This document shows, piece by piece, positions 12,438 through 27,792 of a stretch of DNA of 47,265 bases. The position numbers and the translations under genes are program-made. Origin of the DNA: Candidatus Saccharimonadota bacterium (GTDB lineage Bacteria; Patescibacteriota; Saccharimonadia; Saccharimonadales; UBA10212); NCBI GenBank assembly GCA_028288985.1, contig JAQGHE010000051.1:1-47265 (forward strand), read 5' to 3'. How positions within the stretch are numbered: position 1 is the stretch's first letter; each line of letters starts with the position of its first letter. The notes under the pieces were generated by a model. It did not search any database. It had not been told where the DNA came from and was given only the letters and a program-made list of their open reading frames with translations.

Positions 12438-12440
12438 GGT

Positions 12441-13958: not shown

Positions 13959-14026
13959 ATGTTAATTTTTTCGCAAAAACAGATTTAAGGCTATCTAAAT
14001 TTTCACCTTTAGCAAAATCAAGGATC

Positions 14027-14286
14027 TACCACCTTGTGCCGACAAGGTGGTGCCAAACTCTGGGCTGTTCTCCTCACTTGATGCATCTGATAGTAAAAAA
14101 CGAGCTTGCCTAAAGATCGCCTCAGTAAACTTGCCGTCGGGCAACTTTATTTCGTTTAACGGGCTTTAGGAAGCCAAGCCCGCTCATTTTTATTACATCA
14201 TCTGCTTCAGGTGAGGCTTCTTTATGCCCAAGGGCCACGCATGTGCTTATTCAGGTGAGGCTATAGATGCCCGGACCCAACACACG
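14027..14286 (+). repeat. Intergenic repeat module R, copy 1 (ends with module S, 14252-14279)
   Basis: Hairpin CCACCTTGT-gccg-ACAAGGTGG (14029-14050), then GTGCCAAACTCTGGGCTGTTC...GATGCATCTGATAGTAAAAAACGAGCTTGCC...CAGGTGAGGCTTCTTTATGCCCAAGGGCC...CAGGTGAGGCTATAGATGCCCGGACCCA. Near-identical to 16371-16599 and to the reverse complement of 25240-25445. Confidence 0.9.
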
Positions 14287-14312
14287 TTTACCCATGCCTT
14301 TGTGTTAGCAAA

Positions 14313-15311
14313 ATGACTGAAAGGCTGGAGCAGTTGGATTACACTCAAAAAATGGCAAGATACGGCTACTCTCTTTACTGCGAAGGCAATCACCCGAAGG
14401 ATCTGATCGAACAGGCGGTGATGGCGGAGGATGCCGGCTTTGACTTTCTGGTAATCTCGGACCACTATCATCCATGGCTGCCCAATCAGGAAAACTCCGG
14501 CTTTGCCTGGAGTATTTTAGGGGCGGTTGCCCAGGCTACTACAAAAATAGATCTGGCCACTATGGTTACCTGCCCGATAATGCGCTATCACCCCGCTATC
14601 GTGGCGCAGATGGCGGCAACCATGGCTGTAATAAGCGATGACCGTTTTACTCTGGGGCTGGGAGCGGGCGAGCGCCTGAACGAACACGTAGTCGGCTTGG
14701 GTTGGCCCATGGCCAAAGAGCGCCACTTGATGCTGCGCGAAGCAATAGAAATCATCGCCGATCTGTGGGGCGGGGAGTACGTCACTTACCACGGCGATTA
14801 TTACCAGGTGGATGATGCCAGAATATTCGATCTGCCGGATCAAGAAATTAATACGTTTTTAGCCGCCGGCGGTCCTAGTGCCGCAGCACTGGCGGCCGAG
14901 TTAACTGACGGCATATGCATGACAGAGCCCGATGATAAATTAGTTGAAGTTTATAAAGAGGCTGACGGCGATGCAGACAATATATGGGGGCAGGTAGTCA
15001 TTGGCTGGGACCCCGATGAAAAAACCGCCCTGCAGCATGTTTATGAGCAGTTCCGCTTTGCCGTCGGTGGATGGAAAGTGCAGTCAGAGCTGCCCAACCC
15101 GGCTCATTTCGCCGCGGCTACTAAGAACGTCAAGCCGTACGACCTGGCCAGCTTGATCTCAGCCGGACCGGATGCCAAGAAGCATCTTGATGCTATGGAT
15201 AAATATTTGGACATTGGCGTAGCCAATCTGGCGATCGCTTATCCGGGAGATAAGGTGGAGAGCTTTATGGAATTCTGGGCCGAAAAGCTGCGCCCCAAGT
15301 TGAGGAACTGA
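14313..15311 (+). CDS. Luciferase-like monooxygenase (LLM) class oxidoreductase, F420-dependent G6PDH-family-like
   Basis: 332 aa with AEDAGFDFLVISDHYHPW, RFTLGLGAGERLNEH and GGPSAA blocks, as in TIGR03557-type LLM proteins. Recognised from memory. Confidence 0.6.
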   Translation: MTERLEQLDYTQKMARYGYSLYCEGNHPKDLIEQAVMAEDAGFDFLVISDHYHPWLPNQENSGFAWSILGAVAQATTKIDLATMVTCPIMRYHPAIVAQMAATMAVISDDRFTLGLGAGERLNEHVVGLGWPMAKERHLMLREAIEIIADLWGGEYVTYHGDYYQVDDARIFDLPDQEINTFLAAGGPSAAALAAELTDGICMTEPDDKLVEVYKEADGDADNIWGQVVIGWDPDEKTALQHVYEQFRFAVGGWKVQSELPNPAHFAAATKNVKPYDLASLISAGPDAKKHLDAMDKYLDIGVANLAIAYPGDKVESFMEFWAEKLRPKLRN

Positions 15312-15320
15312 ATTTGAAAA

Positions 15321-15340
15321 GGCCTGGCGATTGCCAGGCC
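15321..15340. terminator. Bidirectional stem-loop GGCCTGGC-gatt-GCCAGGCC between convergent genes
   Basis: 8-bp stem. The AAAA on the left gives a U-run for the minus-strand gene 15389-15886. Confidence 0.5.
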
Positions 15341-15388
15341 CGTTAGCGAGCCGCTCCTATTCGGCGGCCCGCTGCTTTGCTGTCTACT

Positions 15389-15886
15389 CTAGCGGTAGAC
15401 AGAGATGAGCCACTTGGGCTCATCAAACGGCAGATTGTGGGCGGCGCAGAAGCTGCGGGCAGCTTCCACGTCCTCATCGCTGACCGCGAAATTGGCTTCA
15501 CGCGGATTCGATCCGCTCTGCCACCGCGCCGCTTGAACGCTGGACTTGACCGCAATGATGCAGCCTGAGTCTCCGTCTTCGCCTTCGTAGTAGACAGGGA
15601 CGATTCTGATCGGGCACTCCTCCTCGGCCTTTTCTTCGGCGGCTCGATACTGCTCGTAGGCCTCCGTGTTCTTGGCCACCCAATCGTCGAGGGCCTTCAG
15701 TTCGTAGCCGTGGCCAATCTCGTAGGGGATCGGGTCGACAACGCCGGCCAAGTCCTTCAGCCAGTCCTCGAAGGACTTGCTGCGCTCGCCACTCTCTTCG
15801 TAGTCCCAAGGTAGAGACTCGATCTGCTCGGCATCCAGGGCAACCCCGAACGACAAGTTTGCTTGAAGCAATGTACCCACACTCAC
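15389..15886 (-). CDS. Hypothetical acidic protein (GC3-rich cassette)
   Basis: 165-aa ORF. GTG start region preceded by SD GAGGAG. GC-rich third positions. The alternate-frame ORF 15498-15950 is a shadow. Confidence 0.5.
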   Translation of the reverse strand: MSVGTLLQANLSFGVALDAEQIESLPWDYEESGERSKSFEDWLKDLAGVVDPIPYEIGHGYELKALDDWVAKNTEAYEQYRAAEEKAEEECPIRIVPVYYEGEDGDSGCIIAVKSSVQAARWQSGSNPREANFAVSDEDVEAARSFCAAHNLPFDEPKWLISVYR

Positions 15887-15937
15887 TCCTCGGGTCGATG
15901 GAATACCTATTTAATAACATATTTATCCAGCTTTTGC

Positions 15938-16001
15938 TACCTTTTGCCAAAAAGGTAATGCCAAACTCTCAGGCGTCTGCTCACTTGATAGATTAAAAAA
16001 C
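15938..16001 (+). repeat. 5' fragment of module R in a divergent promoter region (palindrome TACCTTTTGCCAAAAAGGTA)
   Basis: Palindrome 15938-15957 followed by ATGCCAAACTCTCAGGCG...CTCACTTGATAG, matching the start of module R. It overlaps the -35 region of the minus-strand promoter TAGCAA-17-TATTAA (15911-15939). Confidence 0.75.
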
Positions 16002-16057
16002 CGACTGTGATTAAAATCACTTAAAATGCTTATGCTGTAGTGCTATATTTAAATCAA

Positions 16058-16342
16058 ATGCCAAAAGAAAAAGTAGGAGCTGCAATTTTCGACGAAGACG
16101 GAGCTGTCGGACAGGGAGATCCTGGTATGGCGCAGATTTTGGGTGTCGAGCTGATAGCGAGCCGCGACACCTTCAAACCCGACAGAACTTTGGCGCCTGT
16201 ATATCTACGTCCCATAGGACGTACCGAACAAGAAGTAATTAACTACGACCACAACCGAGCACGATATTTAACCTGTCGCGTTATTGCAATCGCCGGCTTA
16301 GGTTTCATCGTTGGCGCCGCCCGTACCTCCCGCCGTCGCTAA
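16058..16342 (+). CDS. Hypothetical protein with C-terminal TM segment
   Basis: Track ORF 16040-16342. I prefer the ATG at 16058 (MPKEKVGAAIF...) because a TATATT -10 box sits at 16044-16049, inside the longer ORF. Confidence 0.45.
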   Translation: MPKEKVGAAIFDEDGAVGQGDPGMAQILGVELIASRDTFKPDRTLAPVYLRPIGRTEQEVINYDHNRARYLTCRVIAIAGLGFIVGAARTSRRR

Positions 16343-16370
16343 TCTAATTCTTTCCAAGAACCAATTTTTT

Positions 16371-16599
16371 ACCACCTTTTGCCGAAAAGGTAGTGCCAAG
16401 CTCTGGGCTGTTCGCCTCAGCTTGATGCATCTGATAGTAAAAAACGAGCTTGCCTAAAGATCGCCTCAATAAACTTGCCGTCGGGCAACTTTATTTCGTT
16501 AAACGTGCTTTAGGAAGCCAAGCCCGCTCATTTTATTACATCATCTGCTTCAGGTGAGGCTCCTTTACGCCCAAGGGCCGCAAGTCTCCAAGCCTGAAC
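16371..16599 (+). repeat. Intergenic repeat module R, copy 2
   Basis: Aligns by hand with copy 1 over about 210 nt with roughly a dozen differences. The hairpin carries compensatory changes (CCTTTTgccgAAAAGG versus CCTTGTgccgACAAGG). It ends in CTCCAAGCCTGAAC, abutting the stop of 16599-16940. Confidence 0.9.
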
Positions 16600-16940
16600 T
16601 AAGCTTCTTCTTGAAGATCTTCCAGCTGAATGATTTGCCGCACTGGCGTGGTTCGAAGATCAACCGGCTTATTAGCTGCACCGACACCAACTAACTCCAT
16701 AGACTCGCCGACTATAATTGTTCTAACGCGGCCCGGAGCCAGGATTGCCGCGTCTTCAATAACCTGTTCCTCGATATCTGCATCGGGGCGCTCCAAGGGC
16801 CGCCTGATTACAGTAGACCGTAAGATGCCTTTAATTACGATATGCGCTTCAACGTCGTACTCCGTACCCGATTCTGTGGTCACTCGAACCCTATCACCAG
16901 GGCTCAGCCGTATCTGATCAATTGCTTTTTGACTTTCCAT
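16599..16940 (-). CDS. Hypothetical protein
   Basis: Track ORF 16599-16967. The ATG at 16967 lies inside a TATAAT box (GGCGTATAATGGGG). I prefer the ATG at 16940 (MESQKAIDQ...), which is preceded by GGAG. Confidence 0.5.
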   Translation of the reverse strand: MESQKAIDQIRLSPGDRVRVTTESGTEYDVEAHIVIKGILRSTVIRRPLERPDADIEEQVIEDAAILAPGRVRTIIVGESMELVGVGAANKPVDLRTTPVRQIIQLEDLQEEA

Positions 16941-16971
16941 AGGTACTCCGATATTATTTGCCCCCATTATA

Positions 16972-17069
16972 CGCCTTGCTCAGGCGAGCCCATAGATGCC
17001 CGGACCAAAACTGCAGTCTTCCAGGTGAGACTCCAAGCCTGAACTTGAAATCTGTTTTCCTATTGATGC
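16972..17069 (+). repeat. Composite junction repeat (degenerate module S plus module J)
   Basis: CGCCTTGCTCAGGCGAGCCCATAGATGCCCGGACCA (compare the reverse complement of 26015-26052), then CTCCAAGCCTGAAC...TGTTTTCCTATTGATGC (compare 17781-17821 and the reverse complement of 25150-25204). Confidence 0.85.
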
Positions 17070-17677
17070 ACTGCCGGCTGAGGCTGGTCCAGGTCGCCGA
17101 ACAGACGTTCTTCCCAGTACTGTGCGCCTGTATGGTCGCTCACAGTGGCGACGTACTCGCTTGCATACGATGCAAGGTCTTTGCAGCCTTGGGGTGTGTC
17201 TGGATAAACAGGGGTCAGAGGCACACCTTCGACAACAGTATCATATAAGCAGATGCCCATCTCTTCTTCTGGTACGTCACCGAAAGCGGGCATATATCTT
17301 TCGGCAAAGTAGTCACTCGTGATGTGCGCAGCTTCAATCTCTTCCTCCAACTCAGATATGGTATATCCTCCAGCTTCACGAGAGTCATAAAGAGGTATAT
17401 GGTAGCCATTGGAGTCTTTAGGGTGCTTCCAATTTAGAGGCACTCTGCGAATCTTATAATGGCCGCTTGAACCTTTTTCTTTTCTCGTTATGGAGGCTTT
17501 GGCGTTTTCTAACGCCTCATCAAAATGTGATCCTTTTCCCTTTTGCGTTCCGTTGGCTAGATAGGCTGCCTGCAAAGCTTCGCCATAATCAGCCTTGCCT
17601 ATAGCTAACTTGGCTATCTTCATATGCGCATAAGCGCGGCGCTCGCGAGGATTGGTCGATTCCGGTCCAAAAGCCAT
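17060..17677 (-). CDS. Hypothetical protein
   Basis: Track ORF 17060-17698. The minus strand reads GGTATAATattgctcctAAGGAGttattttATG, so I prefer the ATG at 17677 (MAFGPEST...). The stop codon and last codons lie inside repeat module J. Confidence 0.55.
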   Translation of the reverse strand: MAFGPESTNPRERRAYAHMKIAKLAIGKADYGEALQAAYLANGTQKGKGSHFDEALENAKASITRKEKGSSGHYKIRRVPLNWKHPKDSNGYHIPLYDSREAGGYTISELEEEIEAAHITSDYFAERYMPAFGDVPEEEMGICLYDTVVEGVPLTPVYPDTPQGCKDLASYASEYVATVSDHTGAQYWEERLFGDLDQPQPAVHQ

Positions 17678-17742
17678 AAAATAACTCCTTAGGAGCAATA
17701 TTATACCACCTTTTACACTAGTTTTCTACCCTCCAGACCGTG

Positions 17743-17821
17743 CCCTTCGGTTAGACATGCGTTTGGCCGCGACCTTGCGGCTTCACTCATCCTTCTGTTT
17801 TCCTATTGATGCCCGGACCCA
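17743..17821 (+). repeat. Left 79-nt inverted repeat (IR-L) bracketing the AT-rich core
   Basis: CCCTTCGGTTAGACATGCGTTTGGCCGCGACCTTGCGGCTTCACTCATCCTTCTGTTTTCCTATTGATGCCCGGACCCA. It differs at 6 of 79 positions from the reverse complement of 24296-24375 (hand alignment). Confidence 0.9.
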
Positions 17822-17891
17822 CACTTGTGATGAATGTCATTGTTATTTATCACGCTTACGTATATTATCCGAGCAACAAGAGGGGGTGGGT

Positions 17892-18488
17892 ATGCTTGAT
17901 AGATTTAAGGCATTATCCATCGGCAAGAAAATTGCCGTTGGGGTTGCTTCATTATTTGCGATTGGCATAGTTGGCGGAGCCGTTAATCCAAGTTCCAATT
18001 CTTCAATAAATCAGACTTCAGCTGTTTCCAATCGGAATGGAATAAATACAACTTCTCATACAGCTCAGCCAGTACCCGAAATTAAAGAAGTTACAGAGAC
18101 GCAGTCGATTCCTTTCGAATCAACAACTCAACAAGACCCTTCTTCACCCTCGGGCCAAACATTTATTGCTGTCACCGGATCGAACGGTACAAAAACAGTT
18201 ACCTATAAGGTTACCTACGAAAATGGCGTAGAGAAAAGCCGCGAAAAAGTCTCGGAAACTGTAACTGCTCAGCCAGTCACTCAAATAACCAAAGTCGGCA
18301 CGTATGTTGCTCCGAGCTGCCCGAACGGAACCTATGTAAATACCTATGGCAACACTGTCTGCAGCCCATACAGTGCCCCATCAACACCAGCAGGAGCTAC
18401 AGCTAGATGCGTTGATGGCACATACAGCTTTAGCCAATCACGAAGCGGCACCTGCTCCCACCACGGCGGCGTCGCCACCTGGCTCTAG
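17892..18488 (+). CDS. Membrane-anchored exported protein with G5-like domain and C-terminal DUF3761-like Cys-rich domain
   Basis: Start chosen at ATG 17892 (MLDRFKALSIGKK...) after GAGGGGG. The upstream part of track ORF 17757-18488 runs through the repeat. N-terminal TM. VTYKVTYENGVEKSREKVSETVTAQPVTQITKVGT is G5-like. RCVDGTYSFSQSRSGTCSHHGGVATWL is DUF3761-like. Confidence 0.55.
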   Translation: MLDRFKALSIGKKIAVGVASLFAIGIVGGAVNPSSNSSINQTSAVSNRNGINTTSHTAQPVPEIKEVTETQSIPFESTTQQDPSSPSGQTFIAVTGSNGTKTVTYKVTYENGVEKSREKVSETVTAQPVTQITKVGTYVAPSCPNGTYVNTYGNTVCSPYSAPSTPAGATARCVDGTYSFSQSRSGTCSHHGGVATWL

Positions 18489-18490
18489 TA

Positions 18491-19261
18491 CTAAGCCTCT
18501 GCTGTTGCCGTCTTTCTTTCAGTAACACTTTTTCTTTTTTTTGCTTCATCCAAATGTATTAGGGCTAGGCTGGCGAGGTTTAAATACGCAACTGCTTTTT
18601 CAATAGAATCGATCTCAGTCAACTTGTGCGCCTTCTCATTCCTAAAATTTACTATAGAAAGCCATAGATTAAGCACCCCACATTGAAAATCTTTTTCAGC
18701 CTGTTGAGGATTATTTACATAGTAAAAAATAGGTCTTTCGCCTCCAAATGAATACCTAACCAACGAATCTCCATCCTTTTCCTGCCCACTGGGCTGCTTT
18801 GGATAGCCAGATTTTTTCTTTAGATAATCCAAGGCGCCAATAAAAGCATCGTGAACAGCATTTCTATACATCTTTTTTTCAAAGGCATTTTGGGCAGCTG
18901 AAACTACTAGGGGGTGTAGGGAAGATATAACTTCTGGTGTAAGTTTGCCGGCTTGTTTTTCCAGAGCCCTGGCCTCTATAGGGTCAGACTCGAGTCGCTC
19001 AAACACTTCTAGTATTTCTATACCCCTGCCAATTTCATTTTGCGCTTCCTTGTCTTCTAATTCCTCTAAATTATCGCCAAAACCAATGACACTCACTTCT
19101 CCTATATCGCCAAATTCTTGGACGAGCCTATTCTTTGCACCATAGTTTTTCTCGAGGAGTATTAGAGTAAGGTCTTTCCACTTCCTGAACTCGCTTATCG
19201 CAAAATTCTCCTTGATATTTCTACCATCCTGGATCTGTTGGCGCAATTGTTCCGGACTCAT
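18491..19261 (-). CDS. HEPN-superfamily protein, TIGR02391 (Ymh/Abi-like) C-terminal domain
   Basis: The C-terminal half has LHPLVVSAAQNAFEKKMYRNAVHDAF...DGDSLVRYSF...NFRNEKAH (Rx4H HEPN motif)...AVAYLNLASLALIHLD. Start taken at ATG 19261 (MSPEQL...), one nt after the TAA of the upstream gene. The track start at 19309 would overlap that gene by 47 nt. Confidence 0.6.
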   Translation of the reverse strand: MSPEQLRQQIQDGRNIKENFAISEFRKWKDLTLILLEKNYGAKNRLVQEFGDIGEVSVIGFGDNLEELEDKEAQNEIGRGIEILEVFERLESDPIEARALEKQAGKLTPEVISSLHPLVVSAAQNAFEKKMYRNAVHDAFIGALDYLKKKSGYPKQPSGQEKDGDSLVRYSFGGERPIFYYVNNPQQAEKDFQCGVLNLWLSIVNFRNEKAHKLTEIDSIEKAVAYLNLASLALIHLDEAKKRKSVTERKTATAEA

Positions 19262-19262
19262 T

Positions 19263-19553
19263 TTATCTACACTCCGGGAGATTAAGTAAATTATTCGACC
19301 AACGGCCATCTGTTTGAGTTTGCAAATATTTCGTGCCGGCTGGGCTCACTAATACATAACAGTATGCCTTCTGAGACCCATCGCCCACATAAGCCACTCC
19401 TCTTTTATTTTGCAGAAAATCTACCATGACAGCACGCGAAGCTCTACCATTCTCTCCTGTCTGTTCGTTCCTCCACCCGTAATAGCTTATTGCCTCGTGT
19501 GGATTGTAATGGTTTCCGTAGTCCTTATTTATGCAAATTATTCTAACGGCCAT
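19263..19553 (-). CDS. DUF3892-like small protein
   Basis: 96 aa: MAVRIICINKD...HEAISYYGW...SRAVMVDFLQ..GVAYVG......CYVLVSPAGTKYLQTQTDGRWSNNLLNLPEC. This matches my recollection of the DUF3892 pattern. Translationally coupled to the HEPN gene (TAA-A-ATG). Confidence 0.5.
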   Translation of the reverse strand: MAVRIICINKDYGNHYNPHEAISYYGWRNEQTGENGRASRAVMVDFLQNKRGVAYVGDGSQKAYCYVLVSPAGTKYLQTQTDGRWSNNLLNLPECR

Positions 19554-19813
19554 TTTAATATTCTCCTCAAATTTACTTATACCCTTTTTGAAGTTTTTGT
19601 TTAGAAGAAGACCAGCATCTTGGTGCTGTTTTATCTGTCGTTATAGGGCTTGCAGTCTCTGACTGTAGTGCTCTAGGCCAGATCCACGGCCCAGTGGAGC
19701 TCCGCTTCTAAGAGTGTTGCTTCTCGCTGTTGAAAAATATTTTACAGTTCGCTTATGCTTTTGTCAACCTTATTAGGAAGCTGTTATTTTCTAGTATTGT
19801 TAGGATTCTGTCG

Positions 19814-20680
19814 TCATCCTATTATCTCCAGAGCAGGGCGCACAACTCTCAGTATATTTTCTGATCGATTCTTACTATTTAAATGCAGGGTTGAAAACAG
19901 AAAAAACCCCTTTCCATAAGGTATCTGTATCACGGGAGTGTAGTCGCCTTGAGGACCATCAATGAAACTGCTCTTATGGAATAAATTTACACTGGTATGT
20001 GTTAATTGAATCACGCGAGCGATTCCTTGCTCTAGATCTTTCCCGGAGGCAATTCCTCATACATAATGATTTAGTTTTTGAGTTAGTATCGATTTTAGAA
20101 AAGGTCTCTCCAAAGAATAACCATCTGCAAGCGGTGTTGTATCAATACTTCTTTTCAAGTTCTCGTCGTATGCATAGTAGAAAGGTATGTCAGCTATGTT
20201 GATATACGTGCCCCCGTGTTTTACGTATTCAAAAATATTATTAAGTGATGTGAGCTGCGAAAAGTCCTTCTCGGGATAGTTGCCCCCAAAAGGATTAACT
20301 ATAATGGCATATGCTTTAAATGATCGCTCAGTTTTACTTACTTTATGTCTGATGTTCTTTTGATTCAATATATTACATATTGCTTCTAGGTCTCCATCGA
20401 TCCAAGAGGAATTATTTTCATTAATGACATAAGGGGCGTATATACAGATGCGTCTCAAACGAGCATTCATCTTCCTGATAATCCAGTAGACAGCACTTTT
20501 AAGCCACTCCAATAAACCAACGCCTATCAGGATAAGAATAATAGATAAAAAAATTAGGTAATTTCGATATGCCCATGCCGTTTGATTGTAGAGAGTTGCC
20601 ACTATTCCAAGCAAAGCGCCGGCAAATAAAAGGCTGAGCTCTTTAATCACATGGTATAACTTTTTTATGTCTCCATGCAT
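19814..20680 (-). pseudogene. Membrane-anchored protein of unknown function interrupted by a single in-frame TGA
   Basis: ORF 20057-20680 (207 aa, two N-terminal TM helices) ends ...KLNHYV-TGA (20059-20057). The same frame continues open (GIASGKDLEQGIARVIQLTHTS...) through track ORF 19814-20014, and 20680-20014 is a multiple of 3. Confidence 0.5.
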
Positions 20681-20823
20681 ATCTAAACGAATATTTGCTG
20701 GAGGAGGACTTTTTTGAACAGTTTGGCCTGCTCCAGCTCCTTTTCTGATTAAAATTATACGCCGAACAATAGGAAACTGTTATTTCTGGTTTCTTAGCCG
20801 CGTGACTTACAATATGGATAACT

Positions 20824-23559
20824 ATGCCCTTATCATGGAACGAAATTAGAATTCAAGCTGCTGGATTCGCGGAAAGATGGAAAGATGAGTCTAGCGAAAG
20901 CGCAGAGAAACAAACTTTTTGGAATGAGTTTTTTTCTATATTTGGTATGGATAGGCGCAGTGTGGCACTTTACGAAAAAGCGGTGGATCGTTTCAGTGGA
21001 GCTACGGGCTTTATAGACTTGTTTGTTCCTGGTCAGCTAATTGTTGAGCACAAGAGCGGCAATCAGCCCCTAGACCCAGCCTTTGACCAGGCAGCTGACT
21101 ATGCATTACTTCTTTCGCCCAGTGATCGGCCCCGATATATAATTACATCCAATTTTCACACCTTTCGTCTTTATGACTTAGTTACGGTTTCAAAACAAAA
21201 CGAGTGGACATTTTCCTTAAAGGACTTAGCCAAAAATATTGGTAAATTCGGGTTTATAGCCGGTTACAATAAGCAAGAAGTTTTTGAGGAAGATCCCGTC
21301 AACCGACAGGCTGCCGAGCGTTTAGCTGAGCTGCACGACCAACTCACGGATACCGGCTATAAGGGCCACGATTTGGAAGTACTGCTCGTTAGGCTTCTTT
21401 TCTGTTTATTCGCTGAAGATAGTCATGTTTTTGAAAAAGGAATTTTTCATGATTTTATATACGATCGAACCGATATAGATGGCTCTAATCTTGGAGCCCA
21501 GCTAAATTCACTTTTTGAAGTATTAAACACACCAAAGGAAAAACGCCAATCAAATTTGGATGAAACTTTAGCAGCCTTCCCATATGTTAACGGCAAGTTG
21601 TTTACTGAAAGAATCGCGCCCGCCAGCTTTGACCATAAGATGAGAGATAGAATATTAAATGCAGCGCATGACATAAATTGGAGCGAGATTAGTCCGGCTA
21701 TTTTTGGTGCTATGTTTCAGGGCGTAATAGATCCTAAAATCAGAAGACACCTCGGAGCTCACTATACAAGCGAGCAAAACATCATAAAAGTTATTAAGCC
21801 TCTTTTTTTGGATGCATTGTGGGAGGAATTTAATAAGGCTAAGGACTATAGGCCCCAATTGAACGAATTCCACGACAAACTAGGGAGTCTAACATTCATG
21901 GACCCAGCCTGTGGTTGCGGCAATTTTTTAGTCGTTACTTATCGAGAATTAAGGAAACTTGAACTAGAAGTTTTAAAAACAAAGTACTCTATTCCGGGCT
22001 TAGATATGAAAGAGATGGAGCTAGATTTATCTACTGTCACAAGGTGCAATGTGGATCAGTTCTATGGCCTTGAAATAGAAGAATTCCCGGCGCAAATAGC
22101 ACAGGTCGCTTTATGGCTAACCGATATGCAAATGAATAATGAGGCGGCCGACTATTTTGGCAAACCACTGCTCAGATTGCCTTTAACTCAATCTCCTACA
22201 ATCGTGCAGGGGGACGCGTTAACTACAGACTGGGAAGAACTGATTGAACCGAGTAAGCTATCTTATCTTCTCGGGAATCCTCCATATGCTGGCTATAAAC
22301 TCCAAGATGCTGATCAGAAAATTGCACTTTCTAAATATACCGATTCTATTGAGGGAGGCGGAATTTTAGATTTTGTATGTGGGTGGTTTTTGAAAGCAGC
22401 CAAGTATACAGAAGGTACTACAATTATGAGTGCTTTTGTTGCTACGAACTCAATCGTACAGGGCGAACACGTTACGCCACTGTGGCGTACTTTATTTAAT
22501 AAAGGTATCCACATTAATTTCGCCCACCAAACATTTAAGTGGAGCAATGAAGGAAGAGGAAGCGCGGGAGTTCATTGTGTAATCGTTGGCTTTAGCTATG
22601 TAGAAAAAGAACAAGTGAGTCTTTTTGAATACATATCTGCCTCGGGAGATCCTCATGAACTTATAGTAAATCACATAAATGGATACCTCCTCCCGGGGGA
22701 AGATATATTTATAGAAAAACGCAGTAAGCCATTTCGGACTTGGCCTGCCATTAACTACGGCAATGAACCTAGAGAAGGCAATTTTCTGATTTTTGACTCA
22801 GAAGATAGTAAGAATTCTTTCATAGACATGGAACCTCTCTCTGAAAAATTTATAAGACGATTCATGAGTGCCGAGGACTTCATAAATAGAACTGGTCGCT
22901 GGTGCTTATGGTTGGTAGACGCTTCACCAGGTCAGCTCCGAGAGATGCCGCATGTACTTAATAAACTTAGGGAAGTTAGAGATTTTCGTAAAGAATCAAA
23001 ACAAAAAGCTGCCCATTCGGCGGCTAGCACACCATCTCTATTCGTTTCTATCAGACAGCCAGATAAAGACTACCTCCTGATCCCTATAGTTTCTTCCGAG
23101 AATCGTCGTTATATACCAGTTGGTTGGGTTGACAAAGATGTGATTGCAAGCAATGCGGTCTTTACCTCAATGGAAGCTTCACTTTTCCACTTCGGCGTCT
23201 TAATAAGCGAAATGCACATGACATGGATGCGTCATATATGCGGTAGATTGGAAAGTCGTTATAGATATTCAAATACAATTGTTTACAATACCTTTCCTTG
23301 GCCTAACTGCAACGAAGAAGAGCAAGAAAATATAGCGAACCTTGGGAAAAAAGTGCTTGACGCTCGGAATGAGTATCCTGGAGATTCTTTGGCAGAAATG
23401 TATGATCCACTAACCATGCAACCAACCCTTCAAAAAGCTCATCAAGCATTAGACGCCGCTGTTGATGAACTATACAGAAAAGAGAAATTTACGACCGACT
23501 CAGAACGAATGCAGTTGCTTTTAGCCCTTTACAAGGGATTGGCTAACATAGAGGGGTAA
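20824..23559 (+). CDS. MmeI-like type IIL (IIG/IIS) bifunctional restriction endonuclease / N6-adenine DNA methyltransferase
   Basis: 911 aa. The N-terminal FIDLFVPGQLIVEHKS is a D-x(n)-ExK nuclease motif. FMDPACGCGNFLV is SAM motif I and LLGNPPYAG is catalytic motif IV (NPPY). A long C-terminal target-recognition region follows. Size and order match MmeI-family enzymes. Confidence 0.8.
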   Translation: MPLSWNEIRIQAAGFAERWKDESSESAEKQTFWNEFFSIFGMDRRSVALYEKAVDRFSGATGFIDLFVPGQLIVEHKSGNQPLDPAFDQAADYALLLSPSDRPRYIITSNFHTFRLYDLVTVSKQNEWTFSLKDLAKNIGKFGFIAGYNKQEVFEEDPVNRQAAERLAELHDQLTDTGYKGHDLEVLLVRLLFCLFAEDSHVFEKGIFHDFIYDRTDIDGSNLGAQLNSLFEVLNTPKEKRQSNLDETLAAFPYVNGKLFTERIAPASFDHKMRDRILNAAHDINWSEISPAIFGAMFQGVIDPKIRRHLGAHYTSEQNIIKVIKPLFLDALWEEFNKAKDYRPQLNEFHDKLGSLTFMDPACGCGNFLVVTYRELRKLELEVLKTKYSIPGLDMKEMELDLSTVTRCNVDQFYGLEIEEFPAQIAQVALWLTDMQMNNEAADYFGKPLLRLPLTQSPTIVQGDALTTDWEELIEPSKLSYLLGNPPYAGYKLQDADQKIALSKYTDSIEGGGILDFVCGWFLKAAKYTEGTTIMSAFVATNSIVQGEHVTPLWRTLFNKGIHINFAHQTFKWSNEGRGSAGVHCVIVGFSYVEKEQVSLFEYISASGDPHELIVNHINGYLLPGEDIFIEKRSKPFRTWPAINYGNEPREGNFLIFDSEDSKNSFIDMEPLSEKFIRRFMSAEDFINRTGRWCLWLVDASPGQLREMPHVLNKLREVRDFRKESKQKAAHSAASTPSLFVSIRQPDKDYLLIPIVSSENRRYIPVGWVDKDVIASNAVFTSMEASLFHFGVLISEMHMTWMRHICGRLESRYRYSNTIVYNTFPWPNCNEEEQENIANLGKKVLDARNEYPGDSLAEMYDPLTMQPTLQKAHQALDAAVDELYRKEKFTTDSERMQLLLALYKGLANIEG

Positions 23560-23585
23560 ATTATATCCTTGAGGAGTTCAGTGTG

Positions 23586-23885
23586 TCAGGGATTAACTTT
23601 GAATACTCCTGCTGGGTCATTAGCTGGAGGCACCTGCACAGTACGAATCTGAGAAGGATGATAGTACCCATCTCTGTATAGTGCGTTATTGAAGTGTTGC
23701 TGGTCTAAGATGATGGCTGTTGCTCCAAGTACCATACTGACAAGAGTAATCGCTACGATTATCAAAATGGAATATACAAGTATCTCATTTCGCAAAAACC
23801 TGTCTTGCGTATTTTTGTCTAACTGTTCAAAAGTAATAGTGCCGTTATCAAGAGTGGGCACTCGTATAGAAGCTTCGTCACTCAT
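23586..23885 (-). CDS. Hypothetical small single-pass membrane protein
   Basis: 99 aa with a central TM (ILVYSILIIVAITLVSMVLGATAIIL). Its ATG overlaps the end of the upstream ORF (ATGAGTGA, 8-nt overlap). Confidence 0.5.
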   Translation of the reverse strand: MSDEASIRVPTLDNGTITFEQLDKNTQDRFLRNEILVYSILIIVAITLVSMVLGATAIILDQQHFNNALYRDGYYHPSQIRTVQVPPANDPAGVFKVNP

Positions 23886-24105
23886 TATATATTCCAGTGA
23901 TTACGCTTGGCGCACCGCCAGGTTGTTCTTCAACCTCCAGGTCCCTCCCGTAATACTGGAATAAATCGAAGCCACTAAATAGTACGCCCTTGCTGTAGCT
24001 AGTTTCAGGACTAAGAACTACACCGGCAATCTTGATTGGTTTTTTAGGCCTAATACTGCCGTCAGGGTTTAGCTGAAATAAATCCCAGAATTTTATTCGT
24101 GCCAT
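23878..24105 (-). CDS. Hypothetical small soluble protein, first gene of a two-gene operon
   Basis: 75-aa ORF. Translationally coupled to 23586-23885. No family recognised. Confidence 0.45.
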   Translation of the reverse strand: MARIKFWDLFQLNPDGSIRPKKPIKIAGVVLSPETSYSKGVLFSGFDLFQYYGRDLEVEEQPGGAPSVITGIYNE

Positions 24106-24295
24106 TTTCTCATTTTTATTTTAGCATTAGTAGCTGGTTTCATTATAACTCCTCTATAAGCTTAAGCAATACAATTATCCTAATAAGAAATAACCATAAT
24201 CGAGTTATTCAAGCCTTGGTTGATCTCAAGCATAGTTAAATTCTACATAGTGTGGTTGATGTTTCAGGCTGGGGTTGCCTGAACAAGGCGTGTTT

Positions 24296-24375
24296 TGGGT
24301 CCGGGCATCAATAGGAAAACAGAAGGATGAGTGAAGCTGGCAAGATGACGGCCAAACGCATGTCTAACCAAAGGG
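24296..24375 (-). repeat. Right 79-nt inverted repeat (IR-R) bracketing the AT-rich core
   Basis: The reverse complement reads CCCTTTGGTTAGACATGCGTTTGGCCGTCATCTTGCCAGCTTCACTCATCCTTCTGTTTTCCTATTGATGCCCGGACCCA, matching 17743-17821. Confidence 0.9.
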
Positions 24376-24442
24376 CGATCGGATTGGTCCACTTGCCAGC
24401 AAGCGAATCCTATCTGCTTTTTCCGTCTGCCCGGCGGTGGGT

Positions 24443-24509
24443 GCTACCTTGCCGCCCAAGGTAGCAAAAATTATCTGAGCTTGGTAATACCTTTTCGGCA
24501 AAAGGTATT
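24443..24509. repeat. Two palindromic hairpins of the TACCTT...AAGGTA family
   Basis: GCTACCTTG-ccgc-CCAAGGTAGC (24443-24465) and AATACCTTTTCGGCAAAAGGTATT (24486-24509). Confidence 0.8.
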
Positions 24510-24556
24510 AAAATTTTTGATTCGGAGGTTAACAGTGTGGTCGAGCCCTGGGGCTA

Positions 24557-24585
24557 TTGATTTTTGGAAAGATTTATGTTATTAT
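24557..24585 (+). promoter_or_regulatory. Promoter TTGATT-17 nt-TATTAT (TGn extended -10) upstream of 24704-25075
   Basis: Hexamers and spacing counted by hand. It would give a leader of about 110 nt containing two GGACCCGAATCCCG direct repeats. Confidence 0.5.
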
Positions 24586-24703
24586 ATCGATGGTTCGTTG
24601 ACAACTTGCAGAGGTGACTCCTAAGGACCCGAATCCCGGCTTAAAAGAACCGGAACAGTGGACCCGAATCCCGCTCATCCCGAGCGGAACAGAGAGGAGC
24701 ATC

Positions 24704-25075
24704 ATGGTTAAAGTATTCTATAAGTGCATCAACAACGGCGTAGTGGCCATTGTCGACGAGGCGATCTACAACCTCATCGAGGAGTACGGGCGGCTGCCGG
24801 AGAACCTCCGTGCGGTCACCCTTTACCCGACGCCGATCTTCACGTTTGTGGAGGCGGACTTCCTGGACCACACGACCTACCACGGGTACGTCACCGGCAG
24901 CACCGAGCTGATGGACGCCCTTCTGCGCAACGCAATCGTCGTGGAACGGAACTTCTACGTCCCGTTCAGCAACTGCAGCCACATCAACGGCGACACCGCG
25001 GAGCTGCGCTACCGCACCACTCTCGACGACGCCGTTGGTGCCTTCGGCTTGCTGGAGGCGCTGCTGCCCGTCTAA
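24704..25075 (+). CDS. Hypothetical protein (GC3-rich cassette)
   Basis: Start chosen at ATG 24704 (MVKVFYKCINNG...), preceded by GAGAGGAG. The track ORF starts at 24614. Overlapping ORFs 24641-25099 (-) and 24724-25212 (+) are GC-rich shadows. Confidence 0.5.
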   Translation: MVKVFYKCINNGVVAIVDEAIYNLIEEYGRLPENLRAVTLYPTPIFTFVEADFLDHTTYHGYVTGSTELMDALLRNAIVVERNFYVPFSNCSHINGDTAELRYRTTLDDAVGAFGLLEALLPV

Positions 25076-25105
25076 CCAACTACCACCTCTGCACTGCAAC
25101 GAACC

Positions 25106-25135
25106 AGGGCGCCGCTCACCACGGCGCCCTTTTTT
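25106..25135 (+). terminator. Intrinsic terminator AGGGCGCCG-ctcacca-CGGCGCCCT plus TTTTTT
   Basis: 9-bp GC stem followed by a T-run, 30 nt after the stop of 24704-25075. Confidence 0.7.
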
Positions 25136-25149
25136 ATATCAGTCATCCA

Positions 25150-25204
25150 AGGCCCGGGCATCAATATGAAACGGTTTGCTTAATTTCAGGCTTGGAGGGT
25201 TGCC
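25150..25204 (-). repeat. Module J copy (reverse orientation)
   Basis: The reverse complement reads GGCAACCCTCCAAGCCTGAAATTAAGCAAACCGTTTCATATTGATGCCCGGGCC, paralleling 17031-17069. Confidence 0.8.
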
Positions 25205-25239
25205 TTAAATAGTAGTTGGTAGTTAGCAGATGGTAGCTG

Positions 25240-25445
25240 GTGTGTTTTGGGCATAAAGGAGCCTCACCTGAGCAGATGATGTAACAAAAGTAGCGGCTTT
25301 GAGTTCCTGAAGCTGTCTGACGAATAAAGTTGCCTGCGGCAAGTTTATGAGGAGTTCTTCAGGCAAGCTACTTTTTTATCATCAGATGCATCAAGCTGAA
25401 GCGAACAGCCCAGAGTTTGGCACTACCTTGTCGGCACAAGGTGGT
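25240..25445 (-). repeat. Intergenic repeat module R, copy 3 (reverse orientation)
   Basis: The reverse complement reads ACCACCTTGTGCCGACAAGGTAGTGCCAAACTCTGGGCTGTTCGCTTCAGCTTGATGCATCTGATGATAAAAAAGTAGCTTGCC...CTCAGGTGAGGCTCCTTTATGCCCAAAACACA. It is more diverged than copies 1 and 2. Confidence 0.85.
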
Positions 25446-25451
25446 AAAAAT

Positions 25452-25892
25452 TTATTGCTGGTACAGCAACAATTCCTGCGTCCGGGTCAGCGGCATCAAT
25501 ATATGGTGGCCTATTCGCTGGTACAGCGCCGTTCCCTGATCAAGATCCTCGGCAGAAGCCAGCCTGGCAAAGGGAACCCCATAGCGACGCCTATACAATA
25601 AATTACTCTTTTTTACCCCTACGCTCAGTAAAGTACCCATAACTGTGTGCTCTTCGTAATCGCCCTGACTATCCGTGAGGTGCTTTAGATCATCGGTACC
25701 GGGTATGATCTCGCCTTCAGCTGACAGACGGGGCTGCCAATAATAGCCAGCGAAGACGGCTGTTTGATATTCTTTCCCGCTGTACAAGTAGTTGACTAAC
25801 GAACACCAGTTCTCGTCAACATTTTCCGGAATCGGCAGCATCTCCTGCGGAGCAAGCTGCGGCACGATATCCCATTTAGGTAATTCAGACAT
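25452..25892 (-). CDS. Hypothetical protein
   Basis: 146-aa ORF (MSELPKWDIVPQ...). The ATG lies 8 nt downstream of a TATACT box, so the mRNA is probably leaderless. Confidence 0.5.
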   Translation of the reverse strand: MSELPKWDIVPQLAPQEMLPIPENVDENWCSLVNYLYSGKEYQTAVFAGYYWQPRLSAEGEIIPGTDDLKHLTDSQGDYEEHTVMGTLLSVGVKKSNLLYRRRYGVPFARLASAEDLDQGTALYQRIGHHILMPLTRTQELLLYQQ

Positions 25893-25900
25893 TGCAAGAA

Positions 25901-25930
25901 AGTATAGCCTTGTTTAGCCGAAGTTAACAG
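25901..25930 (-). promoter_or_regulatory. CTGTTAACTTC-13 nt-TATACT promoter (family member 1)
   Basis: Minus strand reads CTGTTAACTTCggctaaacaaggcTATACTttcttgcaATG. Same architecture as 27793-27822 and 28212-28241. Confidence 0.55.
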
Positions 25931-25981
25931 TGCGGCATGGTAGGTGGTAGTTAGCAGATGGTAGATGGTAGGTGGTAGCTG

Positions 25982-26052
25982 GTGTGTTTTGGGCATAAAG
26001 AAGCCTCACCGTTATGGGTCCGGGCATCTATAGCCTCACCTGAGCAAGCGCG
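25982..26052 (-). repeat. Outermost right junction repeat (module S plus the R tail, reverse orientation)
   Basis: The reverse complement reads CGCGCTTGCTCAGGTGAGGCTATAGATGCCCGGACCCATAACGGTGAGGCTTCTTTATGCCCAAAACACAC. These are the same two sub-modules as 14207-14286 but in swapped order. Confidence 0.85.
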
Positions 26053-26072
26053 TCAAAGCCATCAACATTCCC

Positions 26073-26471
26073 CTAATAATCTCTTAAATCCACAACTATC
26101 CCTTCATCATCCGCAGCTTCCTGCGATAGCGGATGTACTGGAAAAGATATACCCGGCTGCCTCCATTCGCCGGCCAACATGACTGTCGCCACAACAAGAG
26201 CGGTTGCCAATTCTACCGTTTCCACTTCGGTTAAAAAAACTCTGTCTTGCGGGCCCAAGGAATAAATAGCAGTATGCTCGATGGCGTGCTGCCAGCGGCG
26301 CAGAAGTTCACCCCCATCTTGTATCCATGGTTCGTTGCTTAATTCTTGCGTGCTTTTTGCCAAGGCTATCAAGGCTTCCCTGTATTCTTCAGATTCCGGA
26401 CGCCAAAAAAGTTCATCCCAACCCTGCGGGTATAGCAACCCCTTGTATGGCTCGTCTTCTTGCATGATCAT
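26073..26471 (-). CDS. Hypothetical protein
   Basis: 132-aa ORF. No family recognised. Confidence 0.45.
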   Translation of the reverse strand: MIMQEDEPYKGLLYPQGWDELFWRPESEEYREALIALAKSTQELSNEPWIQDGGELLRRWQHAIEHTAIYSLGPQDRVFLTEVETVELATALVVATVMLAGEWRQPGISFPVHPLSQEAADDEGIVVDLRDY

Positions 26472-26573: not shown

Positions 26574-27785
26574 TTAGCGGTAGTAGTTAATGGGGTTTGA
26601 GAAAGATTCGCCTGTGGTGCAAGCACCGTCTTTATGCTCGGCCTTCAGATTCAGGTTATCTGTAAGCTGCAGTAGGATCTTGCCGGTTCCGGCGTTGCTG
26701 ATCCTCACGCTCTGGTTATCAAACTGGTAGCAATAGGTTGTGCCGGCTGATGTTTCCCCTGGTTCGCGGTTGATGGTCCCGGAGTGGACAGGCGTGAAGG
26801 CATATGTTGCCGGAGAAGTTATTTTGCCGCCGACACCCAGGATGCCGACAGCCGGGTCCAAATTATTGTGCACCAGGGATAGGTGACTGTTCCAGTCGCC
26901 CTCAGCCTGCTTGGGATCCTTCACGGCGTACCAGCCGCCCTGGAGAGTGCCGGCTTTGTCCTGGCCGATTACGCCGCAGCGCGGAGCAGCGGTCCTTTGG
27001 ATAAGCTGATACATCTGGTCTTTAGCCGAGGTGGTAAAGAAATCCAGCGGGCATACGGCATCCATATTAGTCACATAGGTACTGCTGACGTAGCCCGGGT
27101 CTTTATACCCATTCTTGTGGGCCCCAAGATCGAAAGCACCCAGTTGGGGCTTGCCGCCGACTTTGCCAAGCAGATCGCCGGCGCTGAGTTTAATATCCGT
27201 ATCGTTCATGCAGTAGAAAGTCTCCTCCCCTGCCGCCGGCTGACGGCGGTCGCAGGATGAGTCCAGGTTTTTGGAAGCGACAGCCTCCTTCAGCTTGCCC
27301 CCCAGAGTCTGGACATGCCCGAAGACGAAGTAAACGCCTTTGCAGGCCGAGAACGTCAATGCATAATCATCGGTCATCTGGACCCCTTTCAGCTTTTCGC
27401 CGGAGTGCATTATCCTTGTAATCACGATGTTACCGGGTGCAAGCAGATCAGGATGGGTGACGCTGTTTTGATCCGGATGTTTGAAGGCAAAGTACATGTG
27501 GTCTGTGGGCTGAGTGTGATCGGGAGTGTTTATCGTCCCCAATGGGACAATTTGGTCATAATCCGTCAAAGTCGTGGGTACAGTATCTAGGAAAGGCTGG
27601 TCAGAACAACTAGCCAGCGCTTTATAGTTCGGCCCGCTGCCTCCGCCTTCCGGCTGGGAGGATAATATATTCCCGACGCCCCCGCTTTTATGCATAACTG
27701 TCATGCCTATGAAGATTATCAGGCCAACCACAGCGATCAGAATTATCAGATAAAGAAGGTGGAAACCCTTCTGTTTTTTAATCAT
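26574..27785 (-). CDS. Hypothetical exported/membrane-anchored protein
   Basis: 403 aa. N-terminal TM (LLYLIILIAVVGLIIFIGMTVM), then a Cys-containing soluble domain. The ATG lies 7 nt downstream of a TATAAT box. Confidence 0.55.
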   Translation of the reverse strand: MIKKQKGFHLLYLIILIAVVGLIIFIGMTVMHKSGGVGNILSSQPEGGGSGPNYKALASCSDQPFLDTVPTTLTDYDQIVPLGTINTPDHTQPTDHMYFAFKHPDQNSVTHPDLLAPGNIVITRIMHSGEKLKGVQMTDDYALTFSACKGVYFVFGHVQTLGGKLKEAVASKNLDSSCDRRQPAAGEETFYCMNDTDIKLSAGDLLGKVGGKPQLGAFDLGAHKNGYKDPGYVSSTYVTNMDAVCPLDFFTTSAKDQMYQLIQRTAAPRCGVIGQDKAGTLQGGWYAVKDPKQAEGDWNSHLSLVHNNLDPAVGILGVGGKITSPATYAFTPVHSGTINREPGETSAGTTYCYQFDNQSVRISNAGTGKILLQLTDNLNLKAEHKDGACTTGESFSNPINYYR

Positions 27786-27792
27786 AAGCAGA

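Follow-up and report, generated by a model that had tools for sequence, protein, structure and literature searches.

A composite palindromic repeat at the gene junctions of an accessory island beside yjbQ in a Saccharimonadales chromosome

Introduction

Arrays of neisserial intergenic mosaic elements (NIMEs; RS units bounded by dRS3) are non-coding recombining blocks that lie beside variable genes in a naturally transformable bacterium; they vary between genomes and have been proposed to raise recombination with incoming DNA, exchanging the adjacent genes (PMC1797815). Repeats of the type of miniature inverted-repeat transposable elements (MITEs; Correia, ERIC, RUP) are 100- to 300-nt non-coding, imperfect intergenic palindromes, present or absent at orthologous sites, that can supply promoter or terminator functions and alter gene ends, and truncated and nested copies of them are common. 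Repetitive extragenic palindromes (REPs) and bacterial interspersed mosaic elements (BIMEs) combine a short GC-rich hairpin with other motifs in variable order at gene 3′ ends and between convergent genes, and attC sites, including clusters without an integrase, place an imperfect palindrome directly after an open reading frame (ORF), sometimes overlapping its stop, with unrelated small ORFs between the sites. Repeats flank restriction-modification (RM) genes at a higher frequency than other genes, inverted repeats without a transposase among them, and the units described by Furuta, Abe and Kobayashi in 2010 comprise an RM gene (one of Type IIG) and a few ORFs with imperfect inverted repeats, again with no transposase (PMC2853133). 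These are the respects in which each system resembles the subject of this study, a composite palindromic repeat at gene junctions between 14.0 and 26.05 kb of a 47,265-nt contig (JAQGHE010000051.1, hereafter the window) from a Saccharimonadales bacterium, where it accompanies an accessory and defense island on the 5′ side of yjbQ.

Members of the candidate phyla radiation have small genomes with few repeats, and the acquisition and reshuffling of their accessory and defense genes are poorly understood. In Saccharibacteria, which are naturally competent, DNA is integrated through homologous recombination (PMC10633639). A literature search on repeats of this sort in Saccharibacteria or Patescibacteria found nothing relevant. 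The locus offers a concrete architecture, with one palindromic family at the joints of foreign segments that borders two different RM islands in two genomes. Intergenic mosaics and palindromic repeats are already known as a kind; what is new here is repeat-organized defense islands, previously undescribed in these reduced genomes.

One composite repeat at the gene junctions of the island

The window, the sole part of the source genome examined, is Saccharibacteria (Saccharimonadales) chromosome; the closest homologues of its YjbQ are annotated as Candidatus Saccharibacteria or Saccharimonadales, the window's own proteins form singleton clusters, and domain searches recovered housekeeping content (ATP synthase operon, G6PD, MgsA, ABC transporter, GH10 xylanase, PCMT, DEAD-box helicase, and an NQR-like/ApbE/FMN-binding cluster). 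A megablast search with the region from 13 to 27 kb returned no near matches among phages, plasmids, or E. coli genomes. An earlier model reading of the bare sequence (the sequence-only reading) had proposed that a few modules, named R, S, J, and a GGTAG-rich tract, recur at almost every gene junction, with plus-strand copies left of 17.9 kb and minus-strand copies right of 24.2 kb. Short-word self-blastn with a repeat finder, a profile hidden Markov model (HMM) of R, and motif counts against dinucleotide-preserving shuffles bear out the recurrence, and every motif match agrees with the polarity. The 12-nt core GATGCCCGGACC was observed six times against 0.17 expected in shuffles, with strict polarity, CAGGTGAGGCT six times against 0.8, and the hairpin pattern TACCNCCTT..AAGGTNGT at five loci against 0.01; CCAAGCCTGAA alone is marginal (4 observed, 1.1 expected). 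All copies lie within 14.0-26.05 kb. The R profile found none in the 35 kb of flanks, and, one copy in a related contig aside, no other accessible sequence holds one; the modules are, on this evidence, confined to the locus. Self-BLAST revealed no repeats beyond the modules already named except an unrelated inverted pair at 5.7 and 12.4 kb.

The few independent modules first proposed do not hold up in alignments: R, S, J, the GGTAG tract, and CTCCAAGCCTGAA are each a part or a truncation of a single composite element. Three stretches prove homologous, the last part of the R body (CAGGTGAGGCT-CTTTATGCCC-A-AAACAC), S (CAGGTGAGGCT-ATAGATGCCCGGACCC-A-ACACAC), and the last part of J (TTTTCC-TATTGATGCCCGGACCC-A-AAACAC). 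Because these ends align, the most complete copy, at 25466-25150, joins the blocks, and an R body precedes a J core in the relative L001 (a 28-kb contig from the Joint Genome Institute [JGI] whose YjbQ is 81% identical), we read S, J, the GGTAG tract, and CTCCAAGCCTGAA as tail blocks or truncations. The full element, of ~210 to 300 nt, starts with a T-run and a separate, perfect 10- to 11-bp hairpin termed "a" (24 nt), continues into a ~185-nt imperfect palindrome with arms of ~50 nt (the R body), and carries a tail in which a 7-nt microsatellite and CCAAGCCTGAA precede an unrelated terminal motif, TAT(W)GATGCCC(GGACCC)A.

On the plus strand, R1 (14007-14236) is a full element, with hairpin a at 14027-14050 and a ~185-nt imperfect palindrome ending in CTTTATGCCCA, and S1 (14245-14292) is a tail piece of CAGGTGAGGCT, TATAGATGCCCGGACCCA, and ACACACG... 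just upstream of a luciferase-like monooxygenase (LLM) gene. The sequence-only reading had drawn R1 from 14027 to 14286; the element is real, and that range wrongly takes in S. A degenerate 5′ fragment (15925-16025), recovered by self-blastn at 15925-15989, retains a hairpin (15935-15959), a decayed body, and a promoter-like site for a 100-aa gene. R2 (16350-16599) is again a full element; behind it, CTCCAAGCCTGAAC (16586-16599) lies directly against the stop of a 122-aa gene. At 16971-17069, a degenerate S2 (16971-17021) is joined by CAGGTGAGACTCCAAGCCTGAAC and TGTTTTCCTATTGATGC, the last block overlapping the final codons and stop of a 205-aa gene; both coincidences of stop codon and module that had been pointed out are visible in the sequence. 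A half hairpin (17700-17715) and J1, which is the left, 81-nt arm of the innermost inverted repeat and ends in GATGCCCGGACCCA, complete this side (17700-17821).

On the minus strand, J2 (24263-24376) consists of the right arm of the innermost repeat (24296-24376) and a CCCAGCCTGAA block (24263-24273). Two a-type hairpins follow at 24440-24513, one of them GCTACCTTG..CAAGGTAGC (24440-24470) and the other, TACCTTTTCGGCAAAAGGTA (24477-24513), a hairpin-only copy. The most complete copy (25150-25466) comprises, in element orientation, the hairpin, the R3 body (25243-25446), AAACACACC, the 7-nt repeat tract (25212-25241), GGCAACCCTCCAAGCCTGAA, and TTTCATATTGATGCCCGGGCC (25151-25171). The last block (25934-26053) holds the heptad repeat, the body end GGTGAGGCTTCTTTATGCCCA (25989-26010), and S3 (26011-26053). 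The heptanucleotide ATGGTAG is repeated 6.7 times at 25937-25983 and 4.3 times at 25212-25241, so that the 14-nt insertion once seen in the longer tract is in fact two extra units of this tandem repeat. By self-blastn, R1 and R2 (16350-16579) are 91% identical over 231 nt, and R3 (25247-25466) is 85% identical to R1, in a match that spans 25247-25446, and 84% to R2 over 225 nt. S at 14245-14279 matches 26015-26049 at 94%, the J arms (17742-17821 and 24296-24376) align over 81 nt at 92.6% identity, with a perfect stretch of 42 nt, and the GGTAG tracts at 25189-25268 and 25934-26010 are 80% identical.

Folding of R1 gave z scores of −4.1 and −5.2 on the two strands relative to shuffles, energies are similar for all four full copies (R1, R2, R3, and the one in L001) on both strands, and the R profile matches its own reverse complement. 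Among these copies, 98% of pair cells are standard, and three pairs have changed on both sides, with loops varying and stems fixed, in copies that amount to two lineages. The palindrome therefore appears to be maintained, a pattern in four sequences that is compatible with an RNA structure or with a palindrome acting at the DNA level. Comparison of R1 with R2 shows a 1-nt indel that disrupts the sole long frame; the R body is non-coding, and a coding role was rejected on such frameshifting indels between copies.

The element in related genomes

The element is discrete, palindromic, non-coding, and more conserved between two genomes than the genes around it. L001 is syntenic with the window for the helicase, the NQR/ApbE cluster, yjbQ, and the LLM gene, and it is the sole relative with the element, in one copy that is 92.6 to 94% identical to R3. 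Identity to L001 is 84% for the LLM gene, 75% for yjbQ, and 70 to 73% for the other shared genes, all below that of the element, and the genes beside R3 and beside the L001 copy are unrelated. An element better preserved than neighboring genes, among unrelated neighbors, is either strongly constrained or recently moved. The spacer between yjbQ and the LLM gene measures 85 nt in L001 and ~355 nt in the window, the difference being R1 plus S1 (~290 nt); the pair is absent from the orthologous spacer of L001/L002, a case of presence and absence at an orthologous site. In L001, a J-like core (CTTCTGTTTTCC) lies 20 nt past the R body, and the element with its J-like tail stands at the exact point where GC content drops from 0.54 to 0.43, bordering a Dcm/Vsr/restriction-enzyme island. 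The element thus borders AT-rich RM islands in both genomes, and the RM systems differ.

Other RM and defense sets occupy the 5′ side of yjbQ in relatives, and the gene content differs among them, as had been asked of this locus; the 5′ side of yjbQ is a defense hot spot across this Saccharimonadales clade. The modules themselves are absent from the closest yjbQ and 403-aa homologue neighborhoods (L003 to L013 and L024 to L027), where synteny is lost, and none was found in about 220 kb of related loci. Scans for exact occurrences of three different conserved R blocks gave 0 matches, whether in viral contigs, JGI metagenome contigs, or species-representative genomes; the terminal motif, scanned in a 15-base version, returned 10 viral matches, all attributed to chance by follow-up BLAST.

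L001 carries Dcm, Vsr, and a restriction endonuclease at positions 1-3542, and defense genes also lie on the 5′ side of yjbQ in L024 (480-9899), L025 (3841-9997), and one further locus. Across the latter three, the sets include a type I RM system with a SMODS/AGS_C protein, a Zeta-toxin-like protein, and NucS; an N6_N4 methylase with a ResIII helicase, and a type III-like RM system, are also recorded.

Portable homology as the preferred explanation

The stretch is a horizontally assembled accessory and defense island at the hot spot on the 5′ side of yjbQ. Protein comparison agrees with the earlier claim that the genes between modules are mutually unrelated, and composition differs sharply between segments, as claimed. 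GC content at third codon positions (GC3) ranges from 0.36 to 0.87 around host values of ~0.55 to 0.65: it is 0.75 in a 165-aa ORF, 0.45 to 0.47 in the 100-, 122-, and 205/212-aa ORFs, 0.36 to 0.42 in the AT-rich core, and 0.87 in a 153-aa ORF. These classes alternate across the junctions, and by these values at least four foreign sources are joined in the island.

With moderate confidence, we favor the explanation that the repeat is a lineage-specific, non-autonomous palindromic family, similar to MITEs and NIMEs, that supplies portable homology for the insertion, replacement, and inversion of segments. We infer that it spreads, and disappears, in the manner of small non-autonomous MITE- or REP-like repeats. 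Its copies would provide 40 to 230 bp of portable homology at which incoming DNA, probably delivered by natural transformation, could recombine with resident DNA, the same exchange role that has been proposed for NIME arrays in Neisseria (PMC1797815). Exchange between direct copies would insert or replace segments and exchange between opposed copies would invert them, and at least one founding inversion between opposed copies may have produced the mirror polarity. Inversion between a plus and a minus copy reverses and flips the interior, so that the mirror polarity would be kept with no special system needed. The candidate for the most recent inversion is the 81-bp J pair bracketing the MmeI core, whose arms share 42 identical bases; this innermost pair is the most similar, which would fit a recent exchange between the arms. 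In cis, the hairpins and junction sequences may also serve as 3′-end structures and promoter parts for neighboring genes.

The sequence-only reading had suggested that recombination recurred at a common site. The repeat at foreign-segment junctions, its confinement, the variable gene content, and the RM-island border in L001 together fit repeated recombination at a common kind of site, from which we infer the step from a repeat at junctions to a recombination substrate. Site-specific recombination is unsupported, with no recombinase in the 47 kb, no dyad-symmetric core in the shared motif, and cassette genes pointing both ways relative to the modules. Cassette exchange, also suggested, does not suit R1 plus S1, which stands between two conserved core genes, encloses no cassette, and looks more like the insertion or loss of a small non-autonomous repeat. 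Generic genome-wide repeats beside invariant core genes, the pattern named as contrary to the reading, do not appear in the data at hand.

Several observations weigh against our preferred explanation. The direct repeats flanking the copies are imperfect and their termini inconsistent (CCTTTAGCAAAAT / CCTTTGTGTTAGCAAAAT at R1 plus S1, with CCTTTGTTAGCAAAAT as the L001 counterpart of these flanks; CTAATCTTTA / CTATCTTTTA in L001), they differ in length between R1 plus S1 and the L001 copy, and neither forms a clean target-site duplication; with an imperfect repeat of this kind, insertion and deletion between short repeats are equally possible at R1 plus S1. Similarity in several copies ends at the same nucleotide after GCCC(GGACCC)A and gives way to at least five different sequences. 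A common break point of this kind would not be predicted from general homologous recombination; it hints at the terminus of an element or at a specific point of crossover. The polarity is perfect over ~8 roughly independent units, which chance would give about 1 time in 128, and the copies are packed into 12 kb with none in the other 35 kb, unexpected for a freely transposing MITE. Mobility, constraint, and covariation rest on four full copies from two genomes, which is very little data, and inversion and exchange, as read here from sequence layout, have never been directly observed.

If the repeats do provide portable homology for transformation, they would offer a simple and testable route to defense islands in these epibionts, and possibly a way to target insertions in the few strains that can be cultivated. 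Should they be no more than small mobile elements in decay, the locus is simply an ordinary variable island.

Several further candidates for the nature of the element were rejected. Terminal inverted repeats of the type CAnCAATA/TATTGnTG share only 5 to 6 AT-rich bases. An IS200/IS605-like architecture does not suit end hairpins that are unlike each other and lie at a variable 5 to 13 nt from the putative target. S and J show no consistent −35/−10 in either orientation, with the promoter count at chance, which removes a promoter role for them. GC skew keeps its sign where the polarity switches, and a replication terminus or polar motif as the cause of the switch was dropped.

Alternative explanations

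The common break point and the polarity would also fit a dedicated site-specific system, either integron-like capture or shufflon-like inversion, acting at the site TAT(W)GATGCCCGGACCCA with or without the hairpin and served by a recombinase outside the window. We consider such a system unlikely. Apart from the excess and strict polarity of the 12-nt core and the similarity that stops at one nucleotide in many copies, it would account for the "plus left, minus right" layout, which is closed under inversion as in a shufflon, for segments of independent compositional origin, and for copies that are clustered and not dispersed. Three of the four full elements begin 3 to 28 nt past the stop of an upstream same-strand ORF, as attC sites do, and the stops of a 146-aa ORF and of a 235-aa ORF in L001 lie 3 to 8 nt ahead of the hairpin. 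Against it, no tyrosine, serine, HUH/Y1, or DDE recombinase domain (integrase, transposase, or invertase) was found in the 49 scanned ORFs of the 47 kb, as the sequence-only reading had also seen, or among the called genes of L001 over 17.8 kb. The motif lacks dyad symmetry, the element is 185 to 300 nt long without RYYYAAC/GTTRRRY ends, the candidate inversions switch no coding segment or promoter, and R1 plus S1 lies between two core genes with no cassette. Genes are oriented both ways relative to the sites, and most have promoter-like sites of their own. The claim that each has its own promoter is no more than plausible: promoter-like sites precede five to six genes, and their total count is not above chance. 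A more specific version, in which the hairpin-to-GATGCCCGGACCCA elements are the sites of an undescribed Saccharibacteria gene-capture or inversion system, with its recombinase elsewhere, that reshuffles small foreign genes and RM modules at yjbQ, seems to us slightly less probable again.

The conserved pairing raises the different prospect, to us similarly improbable, that R copies are functional structured RNAs or cis-acting 3′-untranslated-region elements (terminator, stabilizer, or regulator) kept by selection, whose duplication accompanies genes. The predicted structure is strong (z of −4 to −5), pairing is kept through compensatory and G-U changes, the 93% identity between genomes exceeds that of neighboring genes, a same-strand ORF directly precedes three of four copies, and two internal hairpins are followed by T-rich runs. 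Yet both strands fold equally well, as a DNA palindrome would. A search of the whole window against Rfam 15 gave no match at the gathering score and none at E ≤ 1 over the module regions, the element has no promoter of its own, and the T-run of the 5′ hairpin is on the wrong side for an intrinsic terminator. No same-strand gene precedes R1, and the fragments, the polarity, and the island boundaries would be left unexplained.

The inverted pairs could also be footprints of breakpoint-duplicating inversions, or the ends of an RM unit that resembles a transposon in having terminal inverted repeats, the J pair then being part of the history of the MmeI core; this we regard as doubtful. The 81-bp imperfect inverted repeat does bracket the RM core exactly, and RM units with 26- to 65-bp imperfect inverted repeats and no transposase, including Type IIG, are documented (PMC2853133). 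A second inverted pair of ~235 nt (5713-5945 and 12321-12553) brackets another variable segment and is kept in L001. No short direct repeat flanks the J...J unit (17742...24376), however, the terminal motif of J is found again, on both arms, in S and other tails, and the direct copies R1/R2 and S1/S2 are unexplained. A J-like core also lies beside the different RM island of L001, so that J belongs to the repeat family of the locus and not to an MmeI unit.

Accretion of integrative islands in tandem at a single att site (its target resembling a small RNA), with one inversion afterward, was among the mechanisms first suggested and is very unlikely. It would explain repeated partial copies of one sequence at island junctions, and inverting 17822-26053 once would bring all copies into direct orientation. 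It predicts direct repeats and an integrase, neither of which is seen, and the window holds no tRNA or tmRNA. The segments, at 0.3 to 1.7 kb with one or two genes, are far below integrative-element size, and the copies are near full length and 80 to 94% identical where att cores would be short and identical. Finally, a chimeric metagenome contig joined at shared repeats, suggested by the strong composition differences and the metagenomic source of the assembly, can be all but dismissed, since the longest exact repeats (48 and 42 nt, most junction similarities being 20 to 37 nt at ~90%) make mis-joins unlikely and the independently assembled L001 has the same element beside an AT-rich RM island.

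Genes and segments between the copies

From left to right, the stretch opens with the LLM gene (14313-15311, +), host-like with a GC3 of 0.60 and syntenic with L001. A 165-aa ORFan (15389-15886, −; GC3 0.75) is followed by a 100-aa ORFan (16040-16342, +) whose stop lies 28 nt ahead of the R2 hairpin and by the 122-aa ORFan (16599-16967, −) whose stop abuts CTCCAAGCCTGAAC. The 205-aa protein (17060-17677, −) belongs to a real family with 174 representatives; its conserved domain closes at RLFGD, and a 10-aa tail continues into the module, where the stop lies. The −10 of this gene, TGGTATAAT, is the reverse complement of the half hairpin at 17700-17715. The AT-rich core (17822-24295; GC 0.38 to 0.45) encodes a G5/DUF3761 protein, a Hypoth_Ymh protein, a DUF3892 protein, a 207-aa membrane protein, an MmeI-type IIG restriction-methyltransferase (20824-23559), and 99- and 75-aa ORFs. 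The closest MmeI homologue is only 64% identical, and no donor element can therefore be traced. To the right lie a 123/153-aa ORFan (24704-25135, +; GC3 0.87) with its own intrinsic terminator at 25106-25135, the 146-aa ORFan (25452-25892, −), whose stop (CAG CAA TAA) lies 5 nt ahead of the R3 hairpin, and a 132-aa ORFan (26073-26471, −), the first gene right of the last module. None of the small ORFs matched a Pfam, PHROGs, PADLOC, or NCBIfam family.

Within the core, the Hypoth_Ymh gene overlaps the start of the DUF3892 gene by 47 nt (18491-19553) beside the MmeI-type gene, and the Hypoth_Ymh protein has a weak PADLOC match to PD-Lambda-3_B; the two may form a two-gene defense or abortive-infection module. 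The ORFans at 24704-25075 and 15389-15886, with GC3 of 0.87 and 0.75 against a genome value of ~0.6, were likely acquired from a high-GC donor, and we would guess at an actinobacterial host; tblastn found no homologue of either in phage or plasmid collections. The longer ATGGTAG tract (25937-25983) precedes the start of the 146-aa gene (25892, minus strand) by ~55 to 95 nt, and changes in its copy number could alter expression of that gene. A 32-nt promoter-like module (minus strand, TGTTAA-17-TATACT / TATAAT) occurs at 25900-25931 and 27792-27823 with 84% identity, upstream of the 146-aa island gene and of a 403-aa flanking gene. Its occurrence in two places indicates that a promoter has been duplicated here as well.

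The flanking chromosome

That 403-aa protein (26574-27785) has an N-terminal membrane anchor and no Pfam domain. Its homologues are limited to 33, the best 57% identical, and their genomic contexts are entirely different; it appears to be a fast-evolving Saccharibacteria surface protein. On the other side of the island, a 507-aa protein (2710-4233) joins an NQR2/RnfD-like membrane domain to a C-terminal NAD_binding_1 oxidoreductase domain. Its gene adjoins pyridine-nucleotide-disulphide oxidoreductase, ApbE, and FMN-binding genes, a cluster kept in L001 and L003.

The second inverted pair (5713-5945, + and 12321-12553, −; ~235 nt, 72% identical) is unrelated to the island element. Both copies are kept in L001 (8393-8628 and 14152-14405) at 80%, with a weak match in L003. 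Each has a near-consensus promoter (TTGACG/TTGACC-17-TATATT), then a stretch of ~105 to 115 nt with conserved hairpins and compensatory changes, and then a strong terminator (GACCCCTCGGGGTC plus T7); CTGTGG and DnaA-box-like motifs are repeated in the upstream part. No Rfam match was found for the pair, which looks like a two-copy small-RNA gene. It brackets ~6.4 kb in which the DEAD-box helicase is shared with L001 and the remaining genes differ.

Comparison with known systems

The resemblance to NIME arrays is functional and architectural only. As read here, the junctions lack the 20-bp dRS3 inverted repeat ATTCCCN8GGGAAT, the unit consists of a single long palindrome plus a separate hairpin, and about a dozen pieces lie in one island where Neisseria has hundreds genome-wide. 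No phage recombinase that targets the repeat is known. Compared with MITE-type repeats, the locus shows no clean target-site duplication, the ends of its element differ (a hairpin at one, GATGCCCGGACCCA at the other), no parent insertion sequence (IS) is known, and its copies are clustered in accessible sequence. REP and BIME repeats differ in that the locus hairpin lacks the GTAG head arrangement and occurs at 5 loci, a copy number that appears tiny; no REP-associated tyrosine transposase (Y1/HUH domain) was found in the scanned window ORFs.

The sequence-only reading had held that the units fit neither CRISPR, classical attC, nor IS architecture, and the signatures of all three are indeed absent. 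At 185 to 300 nt, the element is longer than attC sites (57 to 141 nt), and it has ends TACCACC... and ...GATGCCCGGACCCA or ...CTTTATGCCCA in place of RYYYAAC/GTTRRRY core sites. Its sequence itself, and not just its structure, is 80 to 94% conserved, and there is no IntI in the window. Unlike attC cassettes, the ORFs lie on both strands relative to the modules, several with promoter-like sites. The RM units of Furuta, Abe and Kobayashi have unit-specific repeats and an 8-bp target duplication, whereas the arms here belong to a repeat family found throughout the island and also in a relative whose RM system is different, and no duplication is seen. In contrast to a shufflon, the inverted pairs come without a recombinase in the window and the segments are complete genes with their own starts, and in contrast to CRISPR, the repeats are 35 to 230 nt long, irregularly spaced at 0.3 to 6.5 kb, and in both orientations with genes between them.

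In the hyperplastic regions of T4-type phages, promoter/stem-loop (PeSL) cassettes are repeated regulatory modules at almost all junctions between small, unrelated ORFs, and recombination at them has been proposed to drive modular shuffling. These are much shorter direct repeats in phages, whereas the present locus is chromosomal, with mirror polarity and a long palindrome. Taken together, the locus works most like NIME and BIME mosaics and MITE-type palindromic repeats, and by their defining features it is a member of none of them.

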